From contig CAYXPQ010000002.1 in assembly GCA_964467225.1 (NCBI GenBank), forward strand, positions 7,901-71,900: a stretch of 64,000 nucleotides of DNA. Reading direction: 5' to 3'. This DNA comes from an uncultured Candidatus Saccharibacteria bacterium. Lineage in GTDB: Bacteria; Patescibacteriota; Minisyncoccia; Phycocordibacterales; PALSA-1337. Of this stretch, positions 2,561 to 62,690 are shown piece by piece. The notes beneath the pieces are model-generated. The model was not told the DNA's origin. It was given only the letters and a program-made list of their open reading frames with translations, and searched no databases. The position numbers were made by a program, and so were the translations under genes. The stretch's first letter is position 1. Each line of letters starts with the position of its first letter.

Positions 2561-2590
2561 TATAAAAGAAAAGAACCGCCCGAAGGCGAT
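2561..2590 (-). terminator. Rho-independent terminator after the 75-aa GC-rich ORF
   Basis: On the minus strand, hairpin CGCC-TTCG-GGCG is followed by GTTCTTTTCTTTT. Confidence 0.4.
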
Positions 2591-2607
2591 TCGTGAAGGT
2601 TTGCTGA

Positions 2608-2835
2608 TCAAGTTTCGATAAGCTCTGCGTGACTGTTATTTAATTCACGCAAGTAGCTTAATGCTGCACCCACAGCGTTACGGCCACCTACATAAAACCA
2701 CGCATTAGACCTATCATGATTTTGAGGTGGTGGTCCAATCTGTCCTGGATACTCACCAGGCTCCAACTCATGAATCTTAGCTTTTCCTCCAGAGTGATCC
2801 ATGACTTGAAGCTTGCTTCTAACAATCAACTTCAT
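2608..2835 (-). CDS. Small hypothetical protein; gene is compositionally GC-rich relative to its surroundings
   Basis: 75-aa ORF (MKLIVRSKLQVMDHSGGKAKIHELEPGEYPGQIGPPP...). It has clearly higher GC than flanking DNA, its own terminator, and no family recognised. Confidence 0.4.
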   Translation of the reverse strand: MKLIVRSKLQVMDHSGGKAKIHELEPGEYPGQIGPPPQNHDRSNAWFYVGGRNAVGAALSYLRELNNSHAELIET

Positions 2836-2907: not shown

Positions 2908-2937
2908 AAAACAAAAAACCGCATAAAGCGGAATTTT
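2908..2937 (-). terminator. Rho-independent terminator downstream of the tRNA-like gene
   Basis: On the minus strand, CCGCTTTATGCGG is followed by TTTTTTGTTTT. Confidence 0.4.
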
Positions 2938-3042
2938 GCGAATTTAATATACGGTGTATATTTCCCTCTCGTCAATATACATATATTATTTCATTCTTAA
3001 TGATAAGTCAAGACTAATTTTGTAAATAATTACTTTTTCCTG

Positions 3043-3112
3043 TGGAGGTGAGGGGACTCGAACCCCCAAACTCCATTTGACGAGAAGGAATTGTGTACCG
3101 CACACCACCCCC
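3043..3112 (-). tRNA. Atypical tRNA-like gene, 70 nt; anticodon ambiguous (UCA or CGU depending on fold); possible degenerate tRNA or pseudogene
   Basis: Canonical acceptor stem (GGGGGTG/CACCTCC), a T-arm GGGGG-TTCGAGT-CCCCT and discriminator A are present, with no encoded CCA. The D-arm is only 3-4 bp with a 5-nt loop. The anticodon arm cannot be folded canonically: one fold gives G33 with anticodon UCA, the other a C.U mismatch with anticodon CGU and C37. Confidence 0.45.
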
Positions 3113-3251
3113 ATAGGAAAAAATAATCATTCTTGAATGAATGTTATCAAAGTGGGTATTAAGAAAAGCTTAAGAAGTTATTAAGATTTAATGAAGATTG
3201 GGGATAGGTTATTATAACTGTTTTGTTTTTCCGTAATGACTATTTGGATTA

Positions 3252-3773
3252 CTATTTTATACCTTGCTGATTACTATTTTTAATTTCCTCAATAATGTCA
3301 TACAGGAATATTGAAATTTCTGCTGAAATATCAATTAGAATATCTCTCAATAGGCCTTCTTTAGAATCAAAATTATATTTATTAATGATATAATTCTTAC
3401 CTCCAAACATTCCTAATTCATCAATGTCTGATTCTGAAAGATTATATTCTAATTCATGTCCAACTTTATTTCTAAGTTTATTCAATCTAAGCAATCTATC
3501 AGCTACTTTTTTACCATCTTGAAATGATTTCAAATTACTTTTAAAATCCTTTAATTTAGAAATCTTATGATGAAATCCACTTCTTTTAATTTCATCCATT
3601 GTAAATGCATCAACCAAAATAAGTACTTGATTTAAATAATACTCACAAATTAAATTAGCTTTGATTATTAGAACATCTGATGGTTTATCGGGCGATAAAA
3701 AATTTTTAACCTTATTCCTAAAAGAATCCAGATGATTTTTTATTGAATCTTGATTATTGTTATCATTTTGCAT
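3252..3773 (-). CDS. HEPN-domain protein (DUF4145/Abi-like; Rx4H motif RNKVGH)
   Basis: The track ORF 3252..3887 reads through tRNA-Glu. The first Met after the tRNA (MQNDNNNQ..., ATG at 3771-3773) gives 173 aa. It is alpha-helical and has the HEPN signature R-x4-H in LRNKVGHE. Confidence 0.55.
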   Translation of the reverse strand: MQNDNNNQDSIKNHLDSFRNKVKNFLSPDKPSDVLIIKANLICEYYLNQVLILVDAFTMDEIKRSGFHHKISKLKDFKSNLKSFQDGKKVADRLLRLNKLRNKVGHELEYNLSESDIDELGMFGGKNYIINKYNFDSKEGLLRDILIDISAEISIFLYDIIEEIKNSNQQGIK

Positions 3774-3788
3774 GATTTTATTTTCATG

Positions 3789-3860
3789 TGACCCTACAGG
3801 GAATCGAACCCTGCTTTGAGCCTTGAGAAGGCTCCGTCCTAGCCGATAGACGATAGGGCC
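3789..3860 (-). tRNA. tRNA-Glu (anticodon CTC)
   Basis: Full cloverleaf: acceptor GGCCCTA/TAGGGTC, D-stem GTCT/GGAC, anticodon stem GAGCC/GGCTC with loop TTCTCAA, T-arm CAGGG-TTCGATT-CCCTG. No encoded CCA. Confidence 0.85.
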
Positions 3861-3890
3861 ATAGGCACAACTAAAACAATAGAACAAAAT

Positions 3891-5141
3891 CTACTTCTTA
3901 GCAAGCCACTCTGGTTCTTGTCTAACCAATAAATCAGAAGCTCTGTCTGGATCAGACAACAAAATCTTTGTAGCTCTTTCTAATCTAATAGATTGAGAAC
4001 CCTTTAGTAAGACTATATCACCCTCCCCAATTATTCCTTTTACATATTCACCAGCATTTATTGATGAATCAAAATGTACTGAATCTTTACTCATTAGTTT
4101 AGCTCTTGGTCCAACTGTTACTAGAATATTGCAGACTTTCATTGCTTTCTCGCCAATTTTCCTATGTTCATCAGTAGAATATTTACCCAATTCCATCATA
4201 TCTCCTAATACTGCTATTTTTTTGCCTGTAGTCTCAATTTTAGATAAAGCATTCAACGCTTCGCTAACAGCATCTGGTGATGAATTGTATGTATCATCTA
4301 TAAGAGTACTACCATTTATTCCAGACAAAATATTCATTCTGCCCTTTGATGGAATATGATTTGGTATGGATTCAACTATTTTATTAATGGAAATATTTCT
4401 AGCAATTCCCACTACAGATGCAGCAAGAACTGGATAAATAAATTGATTACCAATAGCTCCCTTGATATTTACAGGAATACTGTTACCTTCATAATTTAAT
4501 TTAAATAATACTCCAGATTTTATATTCATAGATATATCTGATGCAGATATTGTTGCAGAGTTGTCTATACCAAATGTCATTACTTTCTGTTTATAATTTT
4601 TACTTGCCTCTACAAGACGCTTGTCATCAGCGGAAACAATCAGTGTTCCACTATTTTTCAAGGATTCTGCCAAGTATAATTTCTCTTTCAATACATCCTC
4701 AGGTGTAGGGAAAAATTCAGCATGAGCAGGAATTTCACTGACCTTTGTAATAACAGCAATATCCGTTTTCAACCATTTTGATACTTTTTTTATATCATTA
4801 GGATGATCTGCACCAACTTCCAGAACAAGACATTCTGGATATTTGGATTTAAATAAAATCAGCTCAAGACCATAGAAAATATTTTTTAACCAAATAGCAA
4901 AATCGCTCCAGCCATTTTGACAGCCAAGAATTGTTAGTGGTATACCAATATCACTGTTGAAACTCTTTTCGCTTTTCCTTACATATGAGTTATTGGTCAG
5001 AACAGTATAAATAGCATCTTTTGTTGATGTTTTTCCTACACTTCCAGTTACCGCTACTATAAATGGCTTATATTTCCTTATAATTAATTTTGACTCAAGT
5101 ATAAGTATAAATACAATTATTTTCTTTATTATAAATTTCAT
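3891..5141 (-). CDS. murF: UDP-MurNAc-tripeptide--D-Ala-D-Ala ligase
   Basis: 416 aa. The Mur ligase P-loop VAVTGSVGKTSTK and a C-terminal MurF-type domain are present. It lies in the dcw cluster. Confidence 0.85.
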   Translation of the reverse strand: MKFIIKKIIVFILILESKLIIRKYKPFIVAVTGSVGKTSTKDAIYTVLTNNSYVRKSEKSFNSDIGIPLTILGCQNGWSDFAIWLKNIFYGLELILFKSKYPECLVLEVGADHPNDIKKVSKWLKTDIAVITKVSEIPAHAEFFPTPEDVLKEKLYLAESLKNSGTLIVSADDKRLVEASKNYKQKVMTFGIDNSATISASDISMNIKSGVLFKLNYEGNSIPVNIKGAIGNQFIYPVLAASVVGIARNISINKIVESIPNHIPSKGRMNILSGINGSTLIDDTYNSSPDAVSEALNALSKIETTGKKIAVLGDMMELGKYSTDEHRKIGEKAMKVCNILVTVGPRAKLMSKDSVHFDSSINAGEYVKGIIGEGDIVLLKGSQSIRLERATKILLSDPDRASDLLVRQEPEWLAKK

Positions 5142-5142
5142 A

Positions 5143-6852
5143 TTATCTATCTGGTGGTAACTCGTAATAATTTATAAGGAATTTAGTAATCTGTATAAAT
5201 GGATCTGCCAAGGTTTCTGAAGCGAAATCAGCATTTTTAGGATAGACATGATATAAGAACACAATAAATCTAGGGTTATATGCTGGGAAATATCCAAAAA
5301 ATGAGTGCAGATATCTGTCTCTATAATAACCCCTGTTTATCCTATCTGCAATCTGAGCTGTTCCAGTCTTAGCAGCAATACTATAATGATCCATCTTGTA
5401 GGCTCCCTTTTTCAACGACTCATCTACAACCCTAACAAGCATTTTTGTAACATCATCTGCTGTCTCTTTACTGAGAACCTGAACCACAGGTGGTTCCAAT
5501 GTCTCAATAGTTCCATCAATATACTCAAATCTTGTTGTAAGATGAGGAGTGACTAATTTACCACCATTTGCTAATACAGACAATGCTCTAATGGTTGCAA
5601 TGGGAGTGAGAGCGATACCTTGCCCATAAGATGCTGTTGCTATTTCTACATCTCTTTTACTTTCAATATTTTTAATTATACTCAATTGTTCGTTCGGCTG
5701 ATCGATGCCAGATAGTTCAGAAAGTCCAAATTTTTTAAAATAATCTACAAAGGTAGTGTGCCCCATCTTCAATGCCACGTTTGCCGCTCCAATATTCAAT
5801 GACTGACTTAATATCTCTTGAACATTTGTCCTACCTCTTGCTCTACCATCAAAATTAGCAATCCTCTTTCCATTTAACTCCATTGTGCCAGTGTCTTCAT
5901 AAGTGTAATTTTTGTCTATTGTTTGAGAATCAATTCCAGCAGCAATTGTCAGTGGTTTTATAATGGAACCCATTTCAAAAACATTTTCAACTATTGCATT
6001 TGAGAAAATCTTAGGATCAGTAATTTCCTTTAAATTATTAGAATTAAAACTGGGTGATGATGATATGGCATATATTCTTCCATCATTAGGATCCATAATT
6101 ATAGCACCCATAGAATCTGAATTCCATTTAGATCTAACACTTGCAACAGTCTTATCTAAATAGTTCTGAACAGATGGTTCGATAGCTGTAACGATATCTC
6201 CAGAACGTTGCTCTGAATTAAACACGGAACTAGTAATAGTATTAAATATCTCAGCAAAAACATTTATAGAAGTATTTAAAGAAGTTCGTGAGAGAATTTC
6301 TTCATAATATCTTTCAAGTCCGTATCTACCAGCTATTTTATTGTTACTATCTGATCCAACAAGTCCTACAGAATGTGACGCCAGAGAATCTCCTGGATAT
6401 ACTCGCCAGGATTCTCTAGAGAGAATAACGCCCTTAATTCTTAAATCCAGAATTGAATTTCCAATACTCTTTTCAACTCTTTTTTGGATTTCCTCATATG
6501 GATCATTTCTCTTCATTGCCTTTACCAAAAAATTTTCTCTATCAAGATTAATATAAGTAGACAAAGTAAGATATACTGCTTCTGGATTCTCAATATTTTT
6601 TGGATTTATGGCCAAGGTATATCCTTCTTTAACTGTAGCAGCAGCGATTTTTGTACTATCTTTTAATTCAAAAAAAATAGAACCTCTATCGAAATTTGAA
6701 GACGTTGGCTTTTCATATTGCGCATTTGCCTTTTGAATATAAGTTTCCTTATTTATAATCTGTAAACTATATAATTTTGATACAATCAAAAGACCAAATA
6801 CACAAAATACAGCGAGAATGATTCTAATTCGTAAAACTGAATTTACATTCAT
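5143..6852 (-). CDS. ftsI: Penicillin-binding protein (FtsI/PBP3-type transpeptidase)
   Basis: 569 aa with an N-terminal TM, the motifs SxxK (GSIIKP) and KTGTA, and a dcw-cluster position. Confidence 0.85.
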   Translation of the reverse strand: MNVNSVLRIRIILAVFCVFGLLIVSKLYSLQIINKETYIQKANAQYEKPTSSNFDRGSIFFELKDSTKIAAATVKEGYTLAINPKNIENPEAVYLTLSTYINLDRENFLVKAMKRNDPYEEIQKRVEKSIGNSILDLRIKGVILSRESWRVYPGDSLASHSVGLVGSDSNNKIAGRYGLERYYEEILSRTSLNTSINVFAEIFNTITSSVFNSEQRSGDIVTAIEPSVQNYLDKTVASVRSKWNSDSMGAIIMDPNDGRIYAISSSPSFNSNNLKEITDPKIFSNAIVENVFEMGSIIKPLTIAAGIDSQTIDKNYTYEDTGTMELNGKRIANFDGRARGRTNVQEILSQSLNIGAANVALKMGHTTFVDYFKKFGLSELSGIDQPNEQLSIIKNIESKRDVEIATASYGQGIALTPIATIRALSVLANGGKLVTPHLTTRFEYIDGTIETLEPPVVQVLSKETADDVTKMLVRVVDESLKKGAYKMDHYSIAAKTGTAQIADRINRGYYRDRYLHSFFGYFPAYNPRFIVFLYHVYPKNADFASETLADPFIQITKFLINYYELPPDR

Positions 6853-7172
6853 TATTTTGTAACAAAGGCTGTTAGAGACTTCTTAGAAATAAAGTTACTA
6901 ACTTCACTATCCCTAAATCCCCTAGCATGAGCTAATTCAATATTTATCTCATTTTTTGTTTTAAAATATACACTCTCTAATTCACTAACCTTAGTAGATC
7001 TTTCTCTAATTTCCTTAACAATCTTCTCTTTTGCCACAACGTTTACTATAGTTGAGTGTATAATATAAACATAATATATACTAAAGATAGATATCAAAAC
7101 CACAAGTAAGCCGAATATTCTTTCCCTATACCTTAGAACTGTCTGCAAATTATCTACTATTACTTGTGTCAT
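6852..7172 (-). CDS. ftsL: FtsL-like cell-division membrane protein
   Basis: 106 aa with a single TM plus coiled coil, sitting between rsmH and ftsI as expected in dcw clusters. Confidence 0.5.
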   Translation of the reverse strand: MTQVIVDNLQTVLRYRERIFGLLVVLISIFSIYYVYIIHSTIVNVVAKEKIVKEIRERSTKVSELESVYFKTKNEINIELAHARGFRDSEVSNFISKKSLTAFVTK

Positions 7173-7173
7173 G

Positions 7174-8067
7174 TTATTTTATTTTTTCTATTATTCTTAA
7201 TTTTGCACTTCTTGATCTAGGATTCTCAATAATTTCATTTGCAGAAGGTACTATTGGTTTTTTGGTATGAATCAAGGCCCAACCTAACTCTTCCTTTTCC
7301 TTATTAAAATTTTTTACAATTCTATCTTCTAAACTATGAAATGATATTACAGAAATCCTTCCTCCTACTGCCAATCTACTAAAACCATCTTCTAATCCCT
7401 TTTTTAAAGTATTCAATTCATCATTTACTGCAATTCTTAAAGCTTGAAAGGTTCTTGTAGCTGGATGAATTCTTCCTCTTCTATAAAATATTGGTACAGA
7501 TTGAGAAATTATTTCTACCAATTCACTTGTCGATTCAATTGATTTTTTCTTTCTATAATTTACTATTGCTCTAGCGATTCTTCTTGCGTATTTCTCTTCT
7601 CCATATCCATAAATAATGTCAGCTATGCTTTCTTCTTGCCAAGTATTAACAATTTGATTTGCAGTTATGTCACTTTCAGAAGGACTCTGTTTAAATGTCA
7701 TTAACAAAGGTTCATCATTCTTAAATGTAAATCCTCTGCCAGACGTTTCAAATTGGTCTGATGATAGCCCCAAATCAAGCATTATTCTGTTTACTTTGTC
7801 TATCTTTAATTCATTGAGAACCTTAGAAATGTCTCCATAGCTTGCCTCTTTCAAAATTATATTATTTGAATCACCTAATCTTTCTCTTGATCTTTCTAAT
7901 GCACCAATATCTCTATCAAGTCCTATTATTGTGATTTTTCCATCTGCTTGTTTTAAAGCATATTCTGCATGTCCTGCACTACCAAGAGTTCCATCGAGAT
8001 AGATGTCTCCTGATTTTATAGCAAGTCCATCAATTGATTCATGTAAAAGAACTGTCTTATGTATCAT
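7174..8067 (-). CDS. rsmH: 16S rRNA m4C1402 methyltransferase RsmH (MraW)
   Basis: 297 aa with the motif DGTLGSAGHAE and conserved position after mraZ. Confidence 0.9.
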   Translation of the reverse strand: MIHKTVLLHESIDGLAIKSGDIYLDGTLGSAGHAEYALKQADGKITIIGLDRDIGALERSRERLGDSNNIILKEASYGDISKVLNELKIDKVNRIMLDLGLSSDQFETSGRGFTFKNDEPLLMTFKQSPSESDITANQIVNTWQEESIADIIYGYGEEKYARRIARAIVNYRKKKSIESTSELVEIISQSVPIFYRRGRIHPATRTFQALRIAVNDELNTLKKGLEDGFSRLAVGGRISVISFHSLEDRIVKNFNKEKEELGWALIHTKKPIVPSANEIIENPRSRSAKLRIIEKIK

Positions 8068-8069
8068 AG

Positions 8070-8528
8070 CTATAGTATTCCGACTGATCCTAATTTCTCT
8101 GCCAAGGCATCAGTCTTTTTCTCTACTGTCGTACGATACGATGACCAAACCTTCTCATCCCATATCTCAACCCTATTGAGCACACCAATAATTGCTACTT
8201 TTGACTTAATATTGGCATGCTCACAGAGATGAACCGGAATAAGTATTCGACCAATCGAATCAACTTCAACTTCGGTCGCTCGACCAAATATTATTCGGTT
8301 GAAATTACGATTGTCAGCCTGCAAAACCGATGAAGAATCTGGCCTCGATAGTCGCTCGGCGAATTCCTTCCATCCCTTCAATGTAAAAACGAAGAGACAG
8401 CTATCTATCCCTGGAGCTATAACAACTGTATTTCCCATTTCCTTTCTGAATTTTGACGGAAGTGAGACTCTACTTTTGTCGTCTATCGTGTGCAGATGTT
8501 CTCCGATTAGCATAGGCTGAGTGTTCAA
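8070..8528 (-). CDS. mraZ: Transcriptional regulator MraZ
   Basis: 152 aa with the duplicated MraZ fold, and it is the first gene of the dcw cluster. Confidence 0.9.
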   Translation of the reverse strand: MNTQPMLIGEHLHTIDDKSRVSLPSKFRKEMGNTVVIAPGIDSCLFVFTLKGWKEFAERLSRPDSSSVLQADNRNFNRIIFGRATEVEVDSIGRILIPVHLCEHANIKSKVAIIGVLNRVEIWDEKVWSSYRTTVEKKTDALAEKLGSVGIL

Positions 8529-8570
8529 GTTTCAGAGCTAATTTTAAAGTGTCGATAATTTAAAATTATT

Positions 8571-8667
8571 TCCTACTTCTTCCCACTTGCATACCATTTT
8601 ATCCCACTTCATTTAACTTTGCAAACAAAGTTATCCACTTTTTTACATAAAAAAATAAAATCCCACT
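8571..8667 (-). promoter_or_regulatory. Putative MraZ operator: direct repeats AGTGGGA x4-5 upstream of mraZ
   Basis: The plus strand carries TCCCACT at 8581, 8602 and 8661, plus TCCACT at 8634 and TCCTACT at 8571, spaced roughly by helical-turn multiples and lying 43-140 bp upstream of the mraZ start. This resembles known MraZ GTGGG-type repeat operators. Confidence 0.45.
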
Positions 8668-8708
8668 ATCTTATTTAGTGGAATTCTATTTCTTAGGATT
8701 TTGGAGAT

Positions 8709-9062
8709 TTAAGCGAAGGCTTCTTTCTCTAATTTAGTAATTCTAAACTTATGATCTTGAAGAATTGGTAGAATTTCTTGTTTTGTTACCATATTGTTAT
8801 TTATTTCAGCAACATTCAAGTTGATTTGAGTAATACTTAACTTAACTCCTGCCAAATCAAGCTTAATCTCAGAAATTTCCTCTCTTACATTACCAAATTC
8901 TTCATATACCTTCTTGAAGCTATTTGCTGTCATCACTGCTAAACCCTCAATCTCTTTTTCAATGTGAACTTCTAATGAATTAAATCTATTATCTACATGA
9001 TCCTTGAAATCTTTAAGATCATTTCTTAGGCTCATAATGTACTTTGGTTCCGTTTCATCCAT
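8709..9062 (-). CDS. Coiled-coil hypothetical protein; paralog of the 41108..41617 protein (shared C-terminus DHKxRIxxLEKxxFA)
   Basis: 117 aa and helical. Its C-terminal LQDHKFRITKLEKEAFA matches LNDHKARIVELEKVVFAI of the 41108..41617 product. Confidence 0.4.
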   Translation of the reverse strand: MDETEPKYIMSLRNDLKDFKDHVDNRFNSLEVHIEKEIEGLAVMTANSFKKVYEEFGNVREEISEIKLDLAGVKLSITQINLNVAEINNNMVTKQEILPILQDHKFRITKLEKEAFA

Positions 9063-22956: not shown

Positions 22957-23544
22957 TTAAGAAAACAAATCATTCACAAGAATTTCTTTTATATCAGGGA
23001 ATACTTCTTTAATAACACTAACTAATTTATCATATTTTCTATAGGAAACTGGATTTTTATAAAATCGAAGTTCATTGTATCTTTCGTTATGAAAAATATA
23101 CAAAGAGCATTCTGAGCTATCTCTTGAGATATTTACATTTTTGTTCTTAATTCTACTACCATCTTGTCTAATACGAACAAGTCCCCCTAAAAGATAAAGA
23201 ATACTTTGGAAGGTGAAATCATTAAAACGTATTATAACTGCAGACTCATACCCTTGGTAGTTTTTAAATTTATTATGAGCATCACTTATATCACTCTTAT
23301 AACGGTTAGACAAAGTCTCTAGATTTCTAGTGCGTATAAAAAGAGGATTTGAAAGATTTAATTCTGGTGGACTTTCTGAAAAATCATCTTTCACTTCAAT
23401 TACCAATTTCTCTGTGTGATTTACTAGATCTGCAGATTTAATGTTTTTATAATCTTCTTCCTTATCTCCCATTAACCAGCCATTATTAACCTTAATAAGA
23501 TTTTTTAATAAATTCTGTATGTATTCAATTTCTCCTATATTCAT
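22957..23544 (-). CDS. Hypothetical protein
   Basis: 195-aa ORF ending 3 bp from tRNA-Gln. No motif recognised. Confidence 0.4.
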   Translation of the reverse strand: MNIGEIEYIQNLLKNLIKVNNGWLMGDKEEDYKNIKSADLVNHTEKLVIEVKDDFSESPPELNLSNPLFIRTRNLETLSNRYKSDISDAHNKFKNYQGYESAVIIRFNDFTFQSILYLLGGLVRIRQDGSRIKNKNVNISRDSSECSLYIFHNERYNELRFYKNPVSYRKYDKLVSVIKEVFPDIKEILVNDLFS

Positions 23545-23547
23545 TCG

Positions 23548-23618
23548 GCTGCCGGACTTGGAATCGAACCAAAATTCTCGCTTTCAGAGAGCGATGTCCT
23601 ACCTTTAGACGATCCGGC
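23548..23618 (-). tRNA. tRNA-Gln (anticodon CTG)
   Basis: Cloverleaf with the bacterial Gln hallmark U1-A72, anticodon stem TCGCT/AGCGA, loop CTCTGAA and T-arm TTTGG-TTCGATT-CCAAG. Confidence 0.85.
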
Positions 23619-23712
23619 AATACCTCTATAAAATACATTAAAAATATAGATTGTTCAAGGAGGTAAAATGAGAAAGCACCCTATCATTTCTATATGATGC
23701 AGTCTTTAAATT

Positions 23713-28449: not shown

Positions 28450-28464
28450 GTTAATTATTCTGTG

Positions 28465-28535
28465 AGCCAAATGTGAGAATCGGACTCACGTTCCTACTTT
28501 ACGAAAGTAGTGTTCTGCCACTGAACTAATTTGGC
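28465..28535 (-). tRNA. tRNA-Thr (anticodon CGT)
   Basis: Cloverleaf with acceptor GCCAAAT/ATTTGGC, D-stem GTTC/GAAC, anticodon stem CTACT/AGTAG and loop TTCGTAA. No CCA. Confidence 0.85.
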
Positions 28536-56537: not shown

Positions 56538-59500
56538 CTAAATTATCTGCTTAACTCCACTAAGTATGCGCACTGGGATCTGTTTGATGAATTCAGCAAT
56601 TTTATTTAATATTCCTTTGATATATTGAACAAACACATCATTATATGATAAGGGATCAAAATTAAAGTATTCGGAATCATCATTGAATATATAGTCAGTC
56701 ATTTTATCTGGAGTAGGATTAGTAGATTTTATGTTTTTAGTTGAAACACCAGTCGGATTATTTGTCGAAGTATTCTTTACTGGAGTTACTTTTATATTTA
56801 CTTGTTTGACTGTTGGTACAATAGTACCGAGACCAGCCTTTATTGGTGTATAAACAATATTTGGTGCAATATTTGGAACATAATTTGCCCCTCCTTCTAT
56901 TACTTCGTACACAGAGAATCCATCGACGTTAAATACTAATGTTTTATTTATGAATGAAATAATACTACAAGTTGTACATGGAGTTCCGTCCTTCAAGATC
57001 TTAGGTTTTATTACATTTACATTGTACATAGTAATAATGGCTCTCTTATTTAATTGTGGTAGATTTTTAGAATTTAGTGAGACCTTATTTTGTGAGAATA
57101 CAAGATTAGAATCAATATCTAATTGATTAATAATTGATGAATCATCGTTATATAATTTTGTTGGTTGTCTAAAATTAATTTTTCCAAGTGTGCTTTTGCC
57201 AATTATGAAGTCCGGATAATATGATAGATCTTGATCGAAATTTGGCTTTATATCAAAATTATCGACTTTTGGCTTTGGACATCCATATTTATTAACTACC
57301 GATCTTAATGATGCAGAAGTATTCTGACACATATCAGAAGAATCCATAACTCCATCTAAATCTGTGTCGACAGTAATTAATATTCTTGTAGTAAATGTAT
57401 TATCTGTTGAAACAGAAACATTGCCAGATGCATCCTTAGTTATTACTCTATAGTGGTACAAAGTATTTGGATTCAATCCTGAAATTGATATTGAATGAGA
57501 ATTTACAAGAGTTTGACTAAATGAAGTACTATTGCCATAAGAATCAGTCAAACCATATTCTATCTGAGCATATGTTGGCTCATTAGTCTGGAATGTAATT
57601 GTTGTTTCTCCAGCAGTTACAGAAGGTGCAGCAACATTATTTATTATTGGAGGAATACTATCTATTTCGACAATTACATTAGCAATTGTAACGTTTACTG
57701 GATTAGATATTGCGGTATTACCATTTATATCTGTAGCTTGAGCAGTTAATATATGATTACCATTTGTAACTCCTACAGTATTCCATGCACCAGAATATGG
57801 AGGTTGAGTAAATAAACCTCCAAAATTCACACCGTCCAATTTAAATTGAACACTTTGTACTGCTATATTATCAGTAGCAATAGCCAGAATTGGAACAGAA
57901 TCTTTTATAATAGAATCATTTGTTGGTGAAGAAATAGAAATAGTGGGAGGAGTTGTATCAGCCGCGATAATATTGAAAGAACATGAAGCATTTGTACCAC
58001 CATTTGACTCAACACAAGACCAAAGATTTTGAGTTGCAGAATCTGGCAAATCAGAGAATGCTCCAGAGACACATTGGTTAAGAATCGCTGAGCATTGTCC
58101 AGTAACAACAATAGGGGTTGGAGGCGGATCTTCAGGTAGTGTTGGTGCTGAATAATTTACAGCACTATTCTTTATTGCTGTTCTAGTAGTTGTATTACCT
58201 ATGAATTCTGTAAACCAATAATAAGTTTTACCAGAATTTAATTTATACCGATTATATATTTCACTATATGTTAAAGCTTTTTTGTACATCACAAACTCAT
58301 CAATAAAACCGTTAAATGAAGCCCCGGAGCCAGAATATCCCAGTACAAATAGATTGTTGTTGTCAGACTTTGTAAATGCAGGAATTTGGCATGCAGGAGC
58401 TGGAGTAAGTCTTGGTGTAGGACAATTTGTGTCTTTCGTACCTCCAAGATTTCCATTTACATTCTTACCATCTAGATATATGTCCATTTTTCTTAATTCT
58501 TGCTGAAAACCAGAACCATCAAATACAAAGACTAGGTGATGATAGGTGTTATCTGCTGGGAATTTAATATTGCTATATCTTTCTCTAGTAATTGTTCCAT
58601 CAGAGACTTGAAATATTATCTCCCTACCTGTCTCACGTATTCTAGCTGCATAAGGTGAGAAATCTAATGAGAAACTACTAACATCGCCCTTTGAAAATAG
58701 TCGAGAAGAACCATTCAAAGATGGGGATTTGAGCCACATCTCAATAGTGAATTGATTTAAGTTATTTAAACTTAAATCATTTGGAATTCTAATGCTCTTT
58801 GAATTAGTTGTACCATCAGATTTTAATCCGCCAGCAAATTTTCCATATGAATCTCCATACTCAAGTGTTCCAGCAACTGTGTTTACCAAAGTGGCATTTC
58901 TAGCATAAGAGCTGAAATCCTTTACACTAGTTGTAGTCTCAGCCATCTCTGCTCTTTTGTCAAAATGATACAACATTAAGGTATTTGAATCAGAAGTACG
59001 AATAGGAGCATCCCACGGATAAGTTATTGTACTTCCATTTGCCACATCTTGAGCAAACAATAGATCATTAATTCCAGGTGATGGATTTTCACTTCCAAAA
59101 ACTCTTACTCTCATAGGGTTTTTGTCACCATTTACTGCTTCACTAATTAGTATACTGTCATTACTTGCAACAGTGCCAAATTGGAAGAAAGTTTTATTAA
59201 CTAAATTGGGATCATATGTATTTACTGTAATATAAACTGGGTTATTATTGAGAGTATAGCTAAATCTTTGTCCTGAAGAATAATTACCCAATACCTTACC
59301 AAACATATCATAAATTGTAATTGCTGCAGGTAATGAGTTATTCTCTATTACAACTGTCTTGCCGGGTACATCTGTCCACGCAACCATCACACTATTATTT
59401 GTATCCTTAATGAACTGCATCATTACAATACTCTCGTCATCCACAAAATCGCCTTTAGCAACATAACCTTTAAATTTAATATTCGCACCATCAAGAAAAT

Positions 59501-62500
59501 ACGCTGAGTTCGCAATTGCAACTGCAGTTGCCTTTAGACTTGTATCATATTCATTTAATGTCCATGTATATGAATATCCAGGCGAATGATCACCAGTTGA
59601 AGGGAAATTCAACCAGTAATAGTATAATGGAGAGTCAGCAGCTTTATGATTAGCTAAATACCTTACTGAGTCTGCCGCATGGCCATTTCTATCATCATTT
59701 GGATCAAAATCTGCTTTTGTTTTATAGAAAGTTCCCCCACCTAAAGCACCTCCCTCAGTATTCCACACCCTCATACTACCTCCACTTATTACTTGAGTGT
59801 GATTTTTTAGCGTGTCATAGAAATTAGTACCCATTAATGTTGCATGAGTAGCATAATAATGAGCTGATAGAATATCCAGTTGGGAAATTAATTGATCCTT
59901 AACATCTTTATATGAATAATTCTGTCCAGGAATTAAAGAAACGGTACCTGACCAGCCCACTAATTTTGCTGAAGGATCAGCTCTGCTTGCACCTCTCTTT
60001 GCGGCTTGTACCAGTGATAAATATTCAGGACCAGTCATATGCTGGATACCATTTGATGGATCAACAGAAAAAGTCTCATTATAAATTTCCCACTCTTTAA
60101 TATCGTTTTTATAACGATCGACAATTCTATATACATAATTTTCCCAATCAGAAAGGGAATTCGGCATTGACTTACTTGTAGCACCCGCCCAAGAAGGTGT
60201 CACGCTCAAGAATCCATATGGCTGTAGTCCCATTGCTATGGTTCTATTTATTCTAAAATCTGGGAAATCAAAGACTCCCTTTGTCTTCTCAACTACCCCC
60301 CATGCCAAATCTCCATGAGGTCTAATTCTAGTTAAGCCCAATTTTTTGACCAACTTTACACTTCCAGCATTTAAATTTGAATCAATACCATAAATAGAAT
60401 CACTTGGATTGATATTTTTTTGTACAGGTATTGTTGAGAATACCTTCTCTGATTTAATTACACCATTTACCTTAGCTATTATCCTATAGTGACCTCTCAA
60501 ATTTGTACCAAAAGAGGTATTTTGTCTTACTCTTTGTTTTGATGGAACATTAAATGAAATTGATTTTTGAGAAACAATACTTCCAAAAAAGTCTTCTAGG
60601 GTCAGATCAACTGTGTCTGAAAATGTCTGATCAGAATTATTAGCTAAATATACACCAACTAAGGTGTCTGCACCCCATTGAAATGCATTAAATTCACTTT
60701 CTGGATACATACCAACTTCAATTGGATTAGTTGTATAGTTTGTTAAATTACCCTTCTCAAATTTTATAGCATCTATCAAACCAGCAAACCTTGGGTTTGT
60801 AGGGTATGGATTTTGCCATGGTGGATCACCTGGGAAGACTATCCTAATGACATATTTACCACTAGCTGATGAAGGTAGAGTAAATGTCCAGTCATACCTA
60901 TTCCATGTATTTGTAAGAGTAAATTTTGGACTTTTTGCAAGAAGAGAACCAAAGCCACCTCTACCTCTTGTAGAGTCGTATATTTGATACTCAACTTGAC
61001 CACCACCGACAATATATTTAATACTTGCACTGAGAGTATAAACAGATCCAGCATCGGCAATAACGGGCTGATATGATAATGTATTTTGATATTCACCTGT
61101 ATAAGGAGAATTGAATGGTAAATCATTTGCATTATTCACATATGGCCATTTCAAACTATACATACCATGAACAGAATCAGCAGATAATTCACTTTCAGAT
61201 ATTTTACTGCCTCCAAAACCCCAAAAATTATCTCCAGGTGTTTCAAAACTACTATTATCTAACAAATTATTATTATTTAATAATTGTAACGTTGCTCTAG
61301 TCTTTTCTGTTACAATAGTAGATTTTGCAGAAATATTATTTGAAGTGTCGTAGGCATATACAGTGTAGGAATATGATGTATCAGGACTTAAGGAAATATT
61401 TGAAAAAGTGAGATTTGTAGTGGTAGCAATATCAACACCATCTCTAGAGATCACATATCCAGCAATAGCCACATTGTCAGTACAAGCACCCCAATCCAGC
61501 TTTATTTCAGAGCTTGAAATAGCAGTAGCAATTAACCCTGTTGGAACTGTTGGTGGAGTATTATCAGTCACTGCTACAGGATTTACAGTTATTACAATAT
61601 CTGAATTTGTTGTTGCAATTGAATCCGTAGCCGTCAATCTTAAGGTATAGGTTCCAGAAGTTGAGAATGTAGCTGATGTATTCAAACTATTTGAATTAGC
61701 AAATGTAACAGTGCCAGGGCCCTGAACCATACTCCATGTAGTTGTTAGGATTGAACCACTTGGCTGACCATCATCATTTGCTGTACCACTCAAGGCAGCA
61801 TTGGCAGGCAAGGTAATTGTCTGATTACTACCAGCAGATACAGTTGGAGCTTGATTTGTTGGTGAAGAAGGTGGAGGGGATGAGGATTCTGTATAACTAT
61901 ATACTTCAGAAATTTCTGAAGATGATAATGCTCTATCATAAATCCTCACATCATCTATTAATCCATTAAATGATAGTCCCGCTGCTGTATTATGCTCCCA
62001 TCCCACAACCAAATTGAAAGAAGTATCAGGCAAAAAAGCTGGAAAATTTCCAGTATAATTTGCAGTTCTTTCAGAACCATTTATATATATTTTTGCCTTT
62101 AAAGAATTGGTTGATTGAGTTCCATCAAATACTATAGCAACATGGGTCCATGCATTAGCACTCAAAAATGAACCAGTTGTATATGCATCGACTACTGCAC
62201 CTGAAATATCTCTAGTTTGGAATCTAATATCATTAGTATCATCGGTAGCATGCACAGCCCATCCGAATGCTGCTGCTGCAGCATTCGCTTTTGTGACATG
62301 GTATGCTCTCAATTTCAAGGTAGCAGGATTGATCCAATAGGTTACAGTCATTTGCTGTAATCCATCAACAGCACCCACATCACCTACTCTTACATAATCA
62401 TTTGTACCATCAAATTGAATAGCTCCTGACCCAACTTTACCCGATGTCCAAGTAGGACCATTTATCAAACTGCCTGTATTACTCATTGCACTATCATTGG

Positions 62501-62690
62501 CTATAGTCCCTATACTTTCATCAAATTTATAATAAGCGACTAGTCCATTGCCTATAGACGACGATACCTGTGCAACTTGATAATGCACAGGTATGTCGAA
62601 ATTTGAATAGGAATAAATCAGCGTTAAAGATAATAACAAAGTAGAAAAAATCAATGCTATTCCGTATGATGTATGTATCCTCGTTTTCAA
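56538..62690 (-). CDS. Giant secreted/membrane-anchored multidomain surface protein: 2x LamG (concanavalin-like) domains, a clan GH-A glycoside hydrolase TIM barrel, multiple Ig/FN3-like beta domains
   Basis: 2050 aa with an N-terminal signal/anchor. LamG_3-like motifs (LVAYYKFDE...DDVRIYDRALS) occur twice. A GH-A catalytic acid motif EIYNE sits in a TIM-barrel-like region, and the tail is long, beta-rich and Thr/Ser/Asn-rich. Confidence 0.7.
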   Translation of the reverse strand: MKTRIHTSYGIALIFSTLLLSLTLIYSYSNFDIPVHYQVAQVSSSIGNGLVAYYKFDESIGTIANDSAMSNTGSLINGPTWTSGKVGSGAIQFDGTNDYVRVGDVGAVDGLQQMTVTYWINPATLKLRAYHVTKANAAAAAFGWAVHATDDTNDIRFQTRDISGAVVDAYTTGSFLSANAWTHVAIVFDGTQSTNSLKAKIYINGSERTANYTGNFPAFLPDTSFNLVVGWEHNTAAGLSFNGLIDDVRIYDRALSSSEISEVYSYTESSSPPPSSPTNQAPTVSAGSNQTITLPANAALSGTANDDGQPSGSILTTTWSMVQGPGTVTFANSNSLNTSATFSTSGTYTLRLTATDSIATTNSDIVITVNPVAVTDNTPPTVPTGLIATAISSSEIKLDWGACTDNVAIAGYVISRDGVDIATTTNLTFSNISLSPDTSYSYTVYAYDTSNNISAKSTIVTEKTRATLQLLNNNNLLDNSSFETPGDNFWGFGGSKISESELSADSVHGMYSLKWPYVNNANDLPFNSPYTGEYQNTLSYQPVIADAGSVYTLSASIKYIVGGGQVEYQIYDSTRGRGGFGSLLAKSPKFTLTNTWNRYDWTFTLPSSASGKYVIRIVFPGDPPWQNPYPTNPRFAGLIDAIKFEKGNLTNYTTNPIEVGMYPESEFNAFQWGADTLVGVYLANNSDQTFSDTVDLTLEDFFGSIVSQKSISFNVPSKQRVRQNTSFGTNLRGHYRIIAKVNGVIKSEKVFSTIPVQKNINPSDSIYGIDSNLNAGSVKLVKKLGLTRIRPHGDLAWGVVEKTKGVFDFPDFRINRTIAMGLQPYGFLSVTPSWAGATSKSMPNSLSDWENYVYRIVDRYKNDIKEWEIYNETFSVDPSNGIQHMTGPEYLSLVQAAKRGASRADPSAKLVGWSGTVSLIPGQNYSYKDVKDQLISQLDILSAHYYATHATLMGTNFYDTLKNHTQVISGGSMRVWNTEGGALGGGTFYKTKADFDPNDDRNGHAADSVRYLANHKAADSPLYYYWLNFPSTGDHSPGYSYTWTLNEYDTSLKATAVAIANSAYFLDGANIKFKGYVAKGDFVDDESIVMMQFIKDTNNSVMVAWTDVPGKTVVIENNSLPAAITIYDMFGKVLGNYSSGQRFSYTLNNNPVYITVNTYDPNLVNKTFFQFGTVASNDSILISEAVNGDKNPMRVRVFGSENPSPGINDLLFAQDVANGSTITYPWDAPIRTSDSNTLMLYHFDKRAEMAETTTSVKDFSSYARNATLVNTVAGTLEYGDSYGKFAGGLKSDGTTNSKSIRIPNDLSLNNLNQFTIEMWLKSPSLNGSSRLFSKGDVSSFSLDFSPYAARIRETGREIIFQVSDGTITRERYSNIKFPADNTYHHLVFVFDGSGFQQELRKMDIYLDGKNVNGNLGGTKDTNCPTPRLTPAPACQIPAFTKSDNNNLFVLGYSGSGASFNGFIDEFVMYKKALTYSEIYNRYKLNSGKTYYWFTEFIGNTTTRTAIKNSAVNYSAPTLPEDPPPTPIVVTGQCSAILNQCVSGAFSDLPDSATQNLWSCVESNGGTNASCSFNIIAADTTPPTISISSPTNDSIIKDSVPILAIATDNIAVQSVQFKLDGVNFGGLFTQPPYSGAWNTVGVTNGNHILTAQATDINGNTAISNPVNVTIANVIVEIDSIPPIINNVAAPSVTAGETTITFQTNEPTYAQIEYGLTDSYGNSTSFSQTLVNSHSISISGLNPNTLYHYRVITKDASGNVSVSTDNTFTTRILITVDTDLDGVMDSSDMCQNTSASLRSVVNKYGCPKPKVDNFDIKPNFDQDLSYYPDFIIGKSTLGKINFRQPTKLYNDDSSIINQLDIDSNLVFSQNKVSLNSKNLPQLNKRAIITMYNVNVIKPKILKDGTPCTTCSIISFINKTLVFNVDGFSVYEVIEGGANYVPNIAPNIVYTPIKAGLGTIVPTVKQVNIKVTPVKNTSTNNPTGVSTKNIKSTNPTPDKMTDYIFNDDSEYFNFDPLSYNDVFVQYIKGILNKIAEFIKQIPVRILSGVKQII

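Follow-up and report, generated by a model that had tools for sequence, protein, structure and literature searches.

HepS (STM14_3211), encoded by the Salmonella prophage Gifsy-1, is a solo HEPN abortive-infection anticodon nuclease with structures in PDB entries 9oij and 9oik (PMC13043305). At rest it forms a closed, non-toxic tetramer; a phage tail-tip peptide opens the tetramer, and the opened enzyme cleaves the anticodon loops of tRNA-Thr, tRNA-Ile and tRNA-Ser (PMC13043305). Its disordered termini form a beta-sheet with the tail-tip trigger, and 393 homologues have been counted (PMC13043305). The DUF4145 proteins are HEPN RNases with links to defence; RAZR, whose HEPN domain belongs to the DUF4145-like clade, acts in abortive infection as an RNase made of one protein (PMC13017515). 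HEPN RNases are also common as the toxins of toxin-antitoxin modules (Anantharaman 2013, PMC3710099). Here we analysed a gene for a 173-aa HEPN protein on a stretch of 64,000 nt from an uncultured Candidatus Saccharibacteria bacterium (contig CAYXPQ010000002.1; this whole stretch is called the window below). On balance, we consider it probable that the gene encodes a trigger-activated abortive-infection RNase of the solo, HepS-like type, with a putative RNase activity, target, trigger and role in defence.

The HEPN protein and its relation to HepS

The initial annotation had described the product as a helical, DUF4145/Abi-like protein with the HEPN Rx4H motif in the sequence LRNKVGHE, which spans residues 100-107. 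DUF4145 (PF13643) is indeed the nearest Pfam model, aligning with residues 68-119, but the match falls below the gathering cut-off (13.4 bits vs 23.1; E 0.086), and the protein is not a formal member of that family. Searching a database of 5.8 billion proteins returned 37 homologues of 127-186 aa with 41-49% identity, the sole named one coming from a Patescibacteria metagenome-assembled genome (MAG); the close family comprises 38 clusters at 90% identity. The subfamily alignment contains an invariant block, L97-N98-x-L100-R101-N102-x-x-G105-H106-E107-L108-E109, and the window protein retains all 29 of the invariant subfamily positions, including R101, N102 and H106.

An exhaustive profile search extended this to a wider family of 416 clusters at 50% identity, nearly all of them single-domain proteins of 120-220 aa, although some of the shorter entries look like fragments. 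Named members come from Acidobacteriota, Planctomycetota, Gemmatimonadota and several gammaproteobacteria. When 122 members were aligned, only E44, R101 and H106 were invariant, with N102 conserved in at least 90%. The Pfam matches within these 122 were all to HEPN models: DUF4145 was the commonest (17 members at E <= 0.01, the best at 4.5e-5), followed by HEPN_Cthe2314 (15), HEPN_RiboL-PSP (7) and Abi_2 (3). Placement in a non-HEPN family, which would have spoken against the initial annotation, was not seen among them.

The AlphaFold2 model of the protein (pLDDT 93, pTM 0.87) has eight helices and no strands. Compared with the PDB by Foldseek, it drew HepS chains at ranks 1, 2, 4 and 5 (prob 1.0, TM score 0.48-0.55, E ~0.01-0.09); MtlR of the MtlR-HPr complex 6kcr took ranks 3 and 6 (rank 3 being 6kcr_C, prob 0.99) and Csm6' took rank 7. 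Both marks of the HEPN superfamily (Anantharaman et al. 2013; Pfam clan CL0291) are thus present, an all-alpha bundle and an Rx4-6H motif with a polar residue, N102, after the arginine. We conclude that, judged by its profiles and predicted fold, the protein is a real, single-domain HEPN protein, for which the RNase activity of the superfamily would be expected. The motif and fold assigned by the initial annotation were borne out: the motif is invariant, the fold is confidently modelled, and HepS is the sole sequence relative in the PDB.

That last relationship was found from several directions. The subfamily profile had HepS (9oij) as its best sequence match in the PDB (E 0.007), and the wider-family profile had HepS as its sole match (E 6.5e-12). 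The HepS fragment had no match in the phage collection. For direct alignment, full-length HepS (188 aa) was rebuilt from two split database entries; BLASTP then gave 31% identity over 93 aa (E 6e-6) and hhalign gave E 4.5e-5 at a probability of 69%. R101, N102 and H106 of the window protein align with R100, N101 and H105 of HepS. The two proteins also have in common an upstream I-K-x-N-L-I-x-E helix and an E-Y-x-[IL]-[ST]-[DE]-x-D segment after the motif. By sequence comparison, then, HepS is the closest and the sole characterised relative, and the homology spans the catalytic core. Both are small single-domain proteins (173 aa vs 188 aa), stand-alone products below 250 aa with no extra domain, no conserved partner gene and an accessory distribution. 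They differ in setting: HepS is encoded by a prophage, whereas the window gene is chromosomal, follows a tRNA gene and belongs to Patescibacteria. Homology that includes the motif, and a stand-alone gene, are therefore the HepS-like features found here; flexible trigger-binding termini and a prophage location are not among them.

Other described HEPN systems are less close. The window protein lacks the zinc-finger domain that RAZR carries, as well as the restriction endonuclease, helicase or transmembrane fusions typical of DUF4145 proteins. With the HEPN-MNT (DUF86) systems it has in common a HEPN domain with an Rx4-6H motif, but it has no DUF86 match, and no MNT or other nucleotidyltransferase gene adjoins it in the window or at the homologue loci.

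The slot after murF and tRNA-Glu

The HEPN gene follows a division and cell-wall (dcw) block and a tRNA gene on the same strand (Table 1). The tRNA-Glu(CTC) gene begins 30 nt after the murF stop, and 14 nt separate the tRNA 3' end from the HEPN ATG; the placement given by the initial annotation was thus right, with a gap shorter by one than the 15 bp stated. A 211-aa open reading frame (ORF) that starts at TTG 3887 was rejected as an artefact, since it reads through the tRNA-Glu gene. The GC content of the HEPN gene is 24.7% (16% at third codon positions) vs 31-34% for its neighbours and 33.8% for the window.

Table 1. Coordinates of the HEPN locus in the window, in the order of transcription
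Feature	Position	Strand	Remarks
mraW	8067-7174	-	first gene listed of the dcw block
small ftsL-like ORF	between mraW and PBP/ftsI	-	
class B penicillin-binding protein (PBP)/ftsI	6852-5143	-	
murF-like Mur ligase	3891..5141	-	Pfam Mur_ligase_M and Mur_ligase_C; ends the mraW-ftsL-ftsI-murF block
tRNA-Glu(CTC)	3788..3860	-	ARAGORN; Rfam tRNA 53.6 bits; conserved anchor directly upstream of the HEPN gene
HEPN gene, 173 aa	3252..3773	-	translation; ATG 3773, stop at 3252
R101-N102-K103-V104-G105-H106 codons (Rx4H catalytic motif)	3456..3473	-	
AT-rich spacer, 139 nt	3113..3251	-	HEPN stop to tRNA-like element; GC 25.9%
aberrant tRNA-like element, 71 nt	3042..3112	-	ARAGORN call tRNA-Thr(CGT)
weak terminator-like hairpin, CCGC-TTTAT-GCGG then TTTTTTGTTTT	2908..2931	-	read by eye; directly after the tRNA-like element
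75-aa ORF, function unassigned	2608..2835	-	no Pfam match; GC 43.9%; edge of the variable region
canonical intrinsic-terminator-like hairpin and T-run	2573..2592	-	terminator scan, sole canonical site; after the 75-aa ORF; end of the variable region

To compare this position across relatives, MurF was used as the query in a scan of one genome per species, which gave 80 orthologous loci in Taylorbacteria/Paceibacteria-type MAGs. The family hidden Markov model (HMM) found a HEPN homologue in 0 of the 80, a result whose scope is the 6 kb around murF. Hence the gene is not universally syntenic after murF. A tRNA-Glu gene, by contrast with the cargo, is a regular feature of the site: in ~60 of the 80 loci ARAGORN placed one on the same strand, at most ~370 nt beyond murF (the anticodon being CTC in all but two, which have TTC), and blastn recovered it in ~55. 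The tRNA-Glu(CTC) gene is 81-100% identical across species whose MurF proteins are only ~50% identical. What lies beyond it varies widely. The first two ORFs after the tRNA in the related loci (135 proteins) match 129 different Pfam families, with serine recombinases (3-4 loci), a DNA methyltransferase (at least one locus), GNATs, sigma factors and Ddl among the cargo.

The initial annotation had taken the HEPN gene to replace an expected continuation of the dcw cluster into mraY, murD and ftsW. This view did not survive the comparison: the murF-tRNA-Glu arrangement is conserved in the related loci, and no mraY, murD or ftsW family occurs among the 25 commonest Pfam families of the ORFs after the tRNA. 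Because murF and tRNA-Glu are conserved while the ORFs downstream diverge, we conclude that the dcw cluster ends at murF-tRNA-Glu in this lineage and that the tRNA marks a general hotspot for flexible genes.

The closest locus, L010, shows an exchange in this slot. Its MurF is 94% identical to that of the window, and the two loci are ~85% identical at the nucleotide level. The murF gene, the conserved left flank of the slot, is 85-92% identical in nucleotides, and the tRNA-Glu(CTC) sequence is 100% identical. Collinearity runs from position 9000 of the window to 3775, two bases before the HEPN ATG, and resumes from ~3070 downwards. In between, L010 carries a 127-aa HAD-like gene (7316-7699) in place of the HEPN gene, beginning 2-3 nt after the tRNA. 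Nucleotide identity is 80-97% in the flanks, collapses from ~3775 to 2560 and returns to 87-97% below ~2557. L010 also has an extra GNAT acetyltransferase gene (7891-8418) before the 75-aa ORF, and none is present in the window. The region of the 75-aa ORF is 56-68% identical in nucleotides; its product is 47% identical to the L010 orthologue (8480-8707), whereas the SPFH protein, whose gene adjoins this ORF, is 99% identical.

Several smaller features of the slot can be recorded here. The HAD-like gene of L010 looks truncated, and its HAD_2 match is sub-threshold. The first ~12 nt after the window tRNA-Glu (ATGAAAATAAAA) resemble the start of that HAD gene, a likeness that hints that HAD may have occupied the slot first. 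The 75-aa ORF has 44% GC in a 34% GC genome and encodes a fast-evolving small protein at the slot edge; as a dedicated partner of the HEPN protein it was rejected because it is present in L010 without the HEPN gene.

Is this slot an integrative island of the kind often found at tRNA genes? The window gene resembles tRNA-linked islands in lying immediately 3' of a tRNA, in being present or absent between close relatives and in its atypical GC. It differs in that the cassette measures only ~0.7-1.2 kb, no recombinase or integrase gene occurs between 2560 and 3890, and when att-like direct repeats of the tRNA-Glu 3' end were sought in its surroundings, only short AT-rich chance repeats turned up. 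The tRNA-flanked islet proposed by the initial annotation is thus upheld in its presence/absence pattern, seen in the 80 loci and in the HAD-like swap, but only in part in the classic signature that was attached to it. The swapped cassette has one junction only a few nucleotides from the tRNA-Glu 3' end, and its other junction falls within the T-arm region of the tRNA-like element; such a pattern would fit homology-anchored replacement better than site-specific integration. Together these comparisons support the HEPN gene as an accessory islet in a hypervariable slot.

The tRNA-like element itself, which the initial annotation had called a degenerate tRNA, proved to be real and aberrant. A single nucleotide separates its acceptor stem from its D stem, its anticodon stem contains a C.U mismatch, and it has a G3.U70 pair; it falls below the gathering score of every Rfam family. 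The window has a normal tRNA-Thr(CGT) gene at 28464-28535, to which the element is unrelated. Its flanks (3025-3041 and 3113-3131) add ~19 bp to the acceptor stem, giving 26-nt arms that are 85% complementary. The discriminator base of the element is A, and its resemblance to the two tmRNA ends is sub-threshold (15.5-24 bits vs 47). About 100 nt downstream, 2952-2975 is a 24-nt inverted copy (79% complementary) of its D/anticodon-arm part, 3077-3100, and overlaps a promoter-like TTGACG-18-TATATT site; this copy may be the scar of a rearrangement or may offer an alternative pairing. Of the element, L010 has retained just the 3' part (from ~3070). A role as a conserved RNA partner was rejected for the element, as it is absent beside the other HEPN homologues and L010 retains its 3' part although the slot there has no HEPN gene. 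Two terminators had been placed after it. The one that follows the 75-aa ORF is canonical by scan; the other is weaker, a 4-bp GC stem with a T-run that the consensus terminator scan does not report, and it is kept in L010 at 7855-7878.

Homologue neighbourhoods and the recurrent tRNA

We read 14 contexts of HEPN homologues. An all-against-all comparison found no shared ORF among them other than the HEPN gene, except in L002, L102 and L005, which have a wider neighbourhood in common. We conclude that the HEPN gene is stand-alone, with no conserved partner; the initial annotation's remark that no MNT or other partner gene was visible therefore extends to the homologues.

The neighbourhoods often hold defence or mobile-element genes. 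In L102 the HEPN gene stands directly after tRNA-Glu(TTC), and in the related locus L002 the same tRNA is separated from the HEPN gene by a Shedu SduA gene (5973-7546), whose end is 20 nt from the HEPN ATG; the slot has here gained a second defence gene, nested within it. The L005 homologue is beside a SMODS and S_4TM pair, a methylase and a serine recombinase, L099 has NYN and HNH genes near its homologue, and L103 has a LAGLIDADG gene. In the wider family, one HMM-confirmed member is on a mobilizable Bacillus mycoides plasmid beside DUF262 and integrase genes, and another opens an E. coli island at tRNA-Leu and is found in 41 of 5426 complete genomes. The latter, WP_001547061.1, is annotated as hypothetical (L108 7060-7632, NZ_AP022222.1; HMM E 3.5e-19 at Z=1e6; motif LNKLRNALAH) and has DUF3800, recombinase and DEAD-box helicase genes as island neighbours; it offers a tractable experimental stand-in. 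A mycobacteriophage gave a weak tblastn match to a wider-family member, the HMM confirmation covering the plasmid and E. coli members only. Hence the family is sparsely distributed and horizontally mobile.

The upstream neighbours of the homologues show a second regularity. In 6 of the 14 contexts the HEPN gene has a same-strand tRNA-Glu or tRNA-Gln gene at most 131 nt upstream, and four of these gaps are only 8-17 nt. The shortest is 8 nt, after tRNA-Glu(TTC) in L102; it is followed by the 14 nt after tRNA-Glu(CTC) in the window and by 16 and 17 nt after tRNA-Gln(CTG) in L006 and L103. The distance is ~70 nt in L101, where the tRNA-Gln(TTG) gene is cut by the contig end, and ~108 nt after tRNA-Glu(CTC) in L096, where a convergent murF lies ~600 nt beyond. 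In two more contexts one gene intervenes: SduA after tRNA-Glu(TTC) in L002, and an ORF for a 176-aa transmembrane protein after tRNA-Gln(TTG) in L094. No tRNA type other than Glu or Gln occurs upstream of HEPN in the 14 contexts. As background, 25 of 879 genes in Patescibacteria sequence (2.8%) are so placed, which gives a binomial P of ~1e-6, to be read with the caution that the 14 contexts are not fully independent.

We prefer to read the conserved tRNA as a homology anchor for cassette replacement. This fits the lack of an integrase or att repeat and the two junctions, at the tRNA 3' end and in the T-arm region of the tRNA-like element. tRNA-Glu and tRNA-Gln have D-arm and T-arm sequences in common. 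Tight abutment is not specific to HEPN genes: the HAD-like gene of L010 shows the same spacing, as does an unannotated 195-aa ORF of the window (22957-23544, - strand), which begins 2 nt after a tRNA-Gln(CTG) gene at 23547-23619. This ORF, with which a second window gene abuts a Glu/Gln-type tRNA, has an MGMT-like gene and an ASCH-domain gene after it. In L006 and L103 the HEPN gene holds the equivalent position after tRNA-Gln(CTG). Homologues without an upstream tRNA were searched for a remnant of a tRNA-Glu/Gln 3' end, and the candidate was rejected, its scores lying within background (at or below the 95th percentile). Two of these loci (L005 7935-7958 and L105 3944-3967) have a common motif, GGGTCGCATC(T/A)CGATTAGGCTCAC, 35-65 nt before the HEPN ATG, with a similarity to the tRNA-Glu 3' end that is not above background. 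Elsewhere in the window, at 56538-62690 (- strand), there is a very large ORF of 2050 aa.

Perhaps the tRNA association instead reflects function? The protein might be a housekeeping or regulatory RNase tied to tRNA-Glu and tRNA-Gln, for instance in transcript processing or quality control, and its recurrent position would then reflect that function rather than mobility. The excess over background just described argues for this, as do a spacing that implies co-transcription, the two contexts with one intervening gene, and the lineage that keeps the gene at the same tRNA-Glu(TTC) locus. However, the distribution is very patchy (38 close clusters, and none of the 80 orthologous loci), the HEPN gene has a low GC, and members of the wider family are found on plasmids, on islands and, by the weak tblastn match, in a phage. 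Moreover, the unrelated HAD-like gene of L010 abuts the same tRNA at 2-3 nt, so that tight spacing after a tRNA appears general in these compact genomes. We consider a housekeeping role unlikely.

A related proposal keeps the immune or regulatory role and makes the placement 8-131 nt after tRNA-Glu/Gln functional rather than a footprint of integration. A common transcript might couple the dose of the nuclease to the synthesis of these tRNAs, or the tRNAs might be its substrates, with the linked copy buffering self-damage. We give this little credence. If true, it would make the protein an immune or regulatory RNase that is coupled to tRNAs, in symbiotic bacteria of ultra-small size.

Proposed function and its alternatives

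The reading that we favour, a trigger-activated abortive-infection RNase, can be set out as a series of steps. With 14 nt after tRNA-Glu and 30 nt between murF and the tRNA, the HEPN gene has no room for a promoter of its own. Its expression is probably by read-through from tRNA-Glu and the dcw operon, and its product would be made constitutively. The resting protein would be an inactive oligomer. A protein of a phage or other mobile element would bind its non-conserved terminal regions and open the composite R/H active sites, and the activated enzyme would then cleave RNA, the most plausible target being the anticodon loops of tRNAs, as for HepS. Translation would halt and the infection would be aborted. 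The cassette itself was probably acquired by recombination for which the highly conserved tRNA-Glu gene served as the anchor, with no integrase involved.

A number of observations weigh against this reading. HEPN domains occur also in toxin-antitoxin and RNA-processing proteins. Scans of the 173-aa protein gave no match in PADLOC or NCBIfam and nothing significant in Pfam. No relative of it was found among IMG/VR viral contigs, BFVD viral structures or INPHARED phages, and no phage genes were found; the neighbours of the HEPN gene are murF, tRNAs and SPFH. In L002, L102 and L005, which have common flanks at the tRNA-Glu(TTC) locus, the gene looks vertically retained in one lineage, a pattern that a housekeeping gene could also show. 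The absence from the murF loci has the 6-kb scope given above. As to HepS, the ~31% identity is confined to residues 35-122; the termini of the window protein are unrelated to those of HepS and are predicted to be long helices, so that the HepS trigger-binding termini have no counterpart and any trigger must differ.

Alternatively, the protein could act as the toxin in a toxin-antitoxin or addiction module, the antitoxin (a small RNA, the tRNA-like element or the 75-aa ORF) having gone unrecognised. HEPN RNases are common toxins of such modules (PMC3710099), an odd tRNA-like RNA gene lies 139 nt downstream, and the HEPN gene is within a variable region. However, neither MNT nor any other protein partner is conserved across the 14 homologue contexts, no tRNA-like element lies downstream of HEPN at the other loci, and L010, which lacks HEPN in this slot, still has both the 75-aa ORF and the 3' part of the tRNA-like element. 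Six-frame translation of the spacer (3113..3251) gave no ORF of 20 aa or more. HepS, in addition, shows that a solo HEPN protein can be non-toxic without an antitoxin (PMC13043305). Hence we regard an addiction module as improbable.

Least probable is a decaying or non-catalytic remnant without current function, which could account for the surrounding debris (the aberrant tRNA-like element, its inverted partial copy and the fast-diverging small ORF), for a window protein that is the most divergent of its subfamily (41-49% identity to all others) and for N40 where at least 90% of relatives carry H, but which is at odds with an intact, full-length reading frame, the complete set of invariant subfamily residues, R101, N102 and H106 included, a confident structure prediction and the N that HepS likewise has at the position equivalent to residue 40.

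Single-protein HEPN abortive-infection RNases such as HepS and RAZR were worked out only in 2026, in enterobacteria. The genomes of Patescibacteria are tiny, the defence systems recognised in them are few, and the organisms are hard to culture. The locus described here shows a distant, unannotated branch of the HepS-related family in these bacteria. Because neither Pfam nor PADLOC includes the wider family (416 clusters at 50% identity), current defence-finding pipelines overlook it. The locus also illustrates cleanly how, in nature, a hypervariable slot for cargo genes can be fixed to a conserved tRNA gene where a cell-wall operon ends. The association with tRNA-Glu and tRNA-Gln suggests either an integrase-free, homology-anchored spread of defence genes or a functional tie to those tRNAs.

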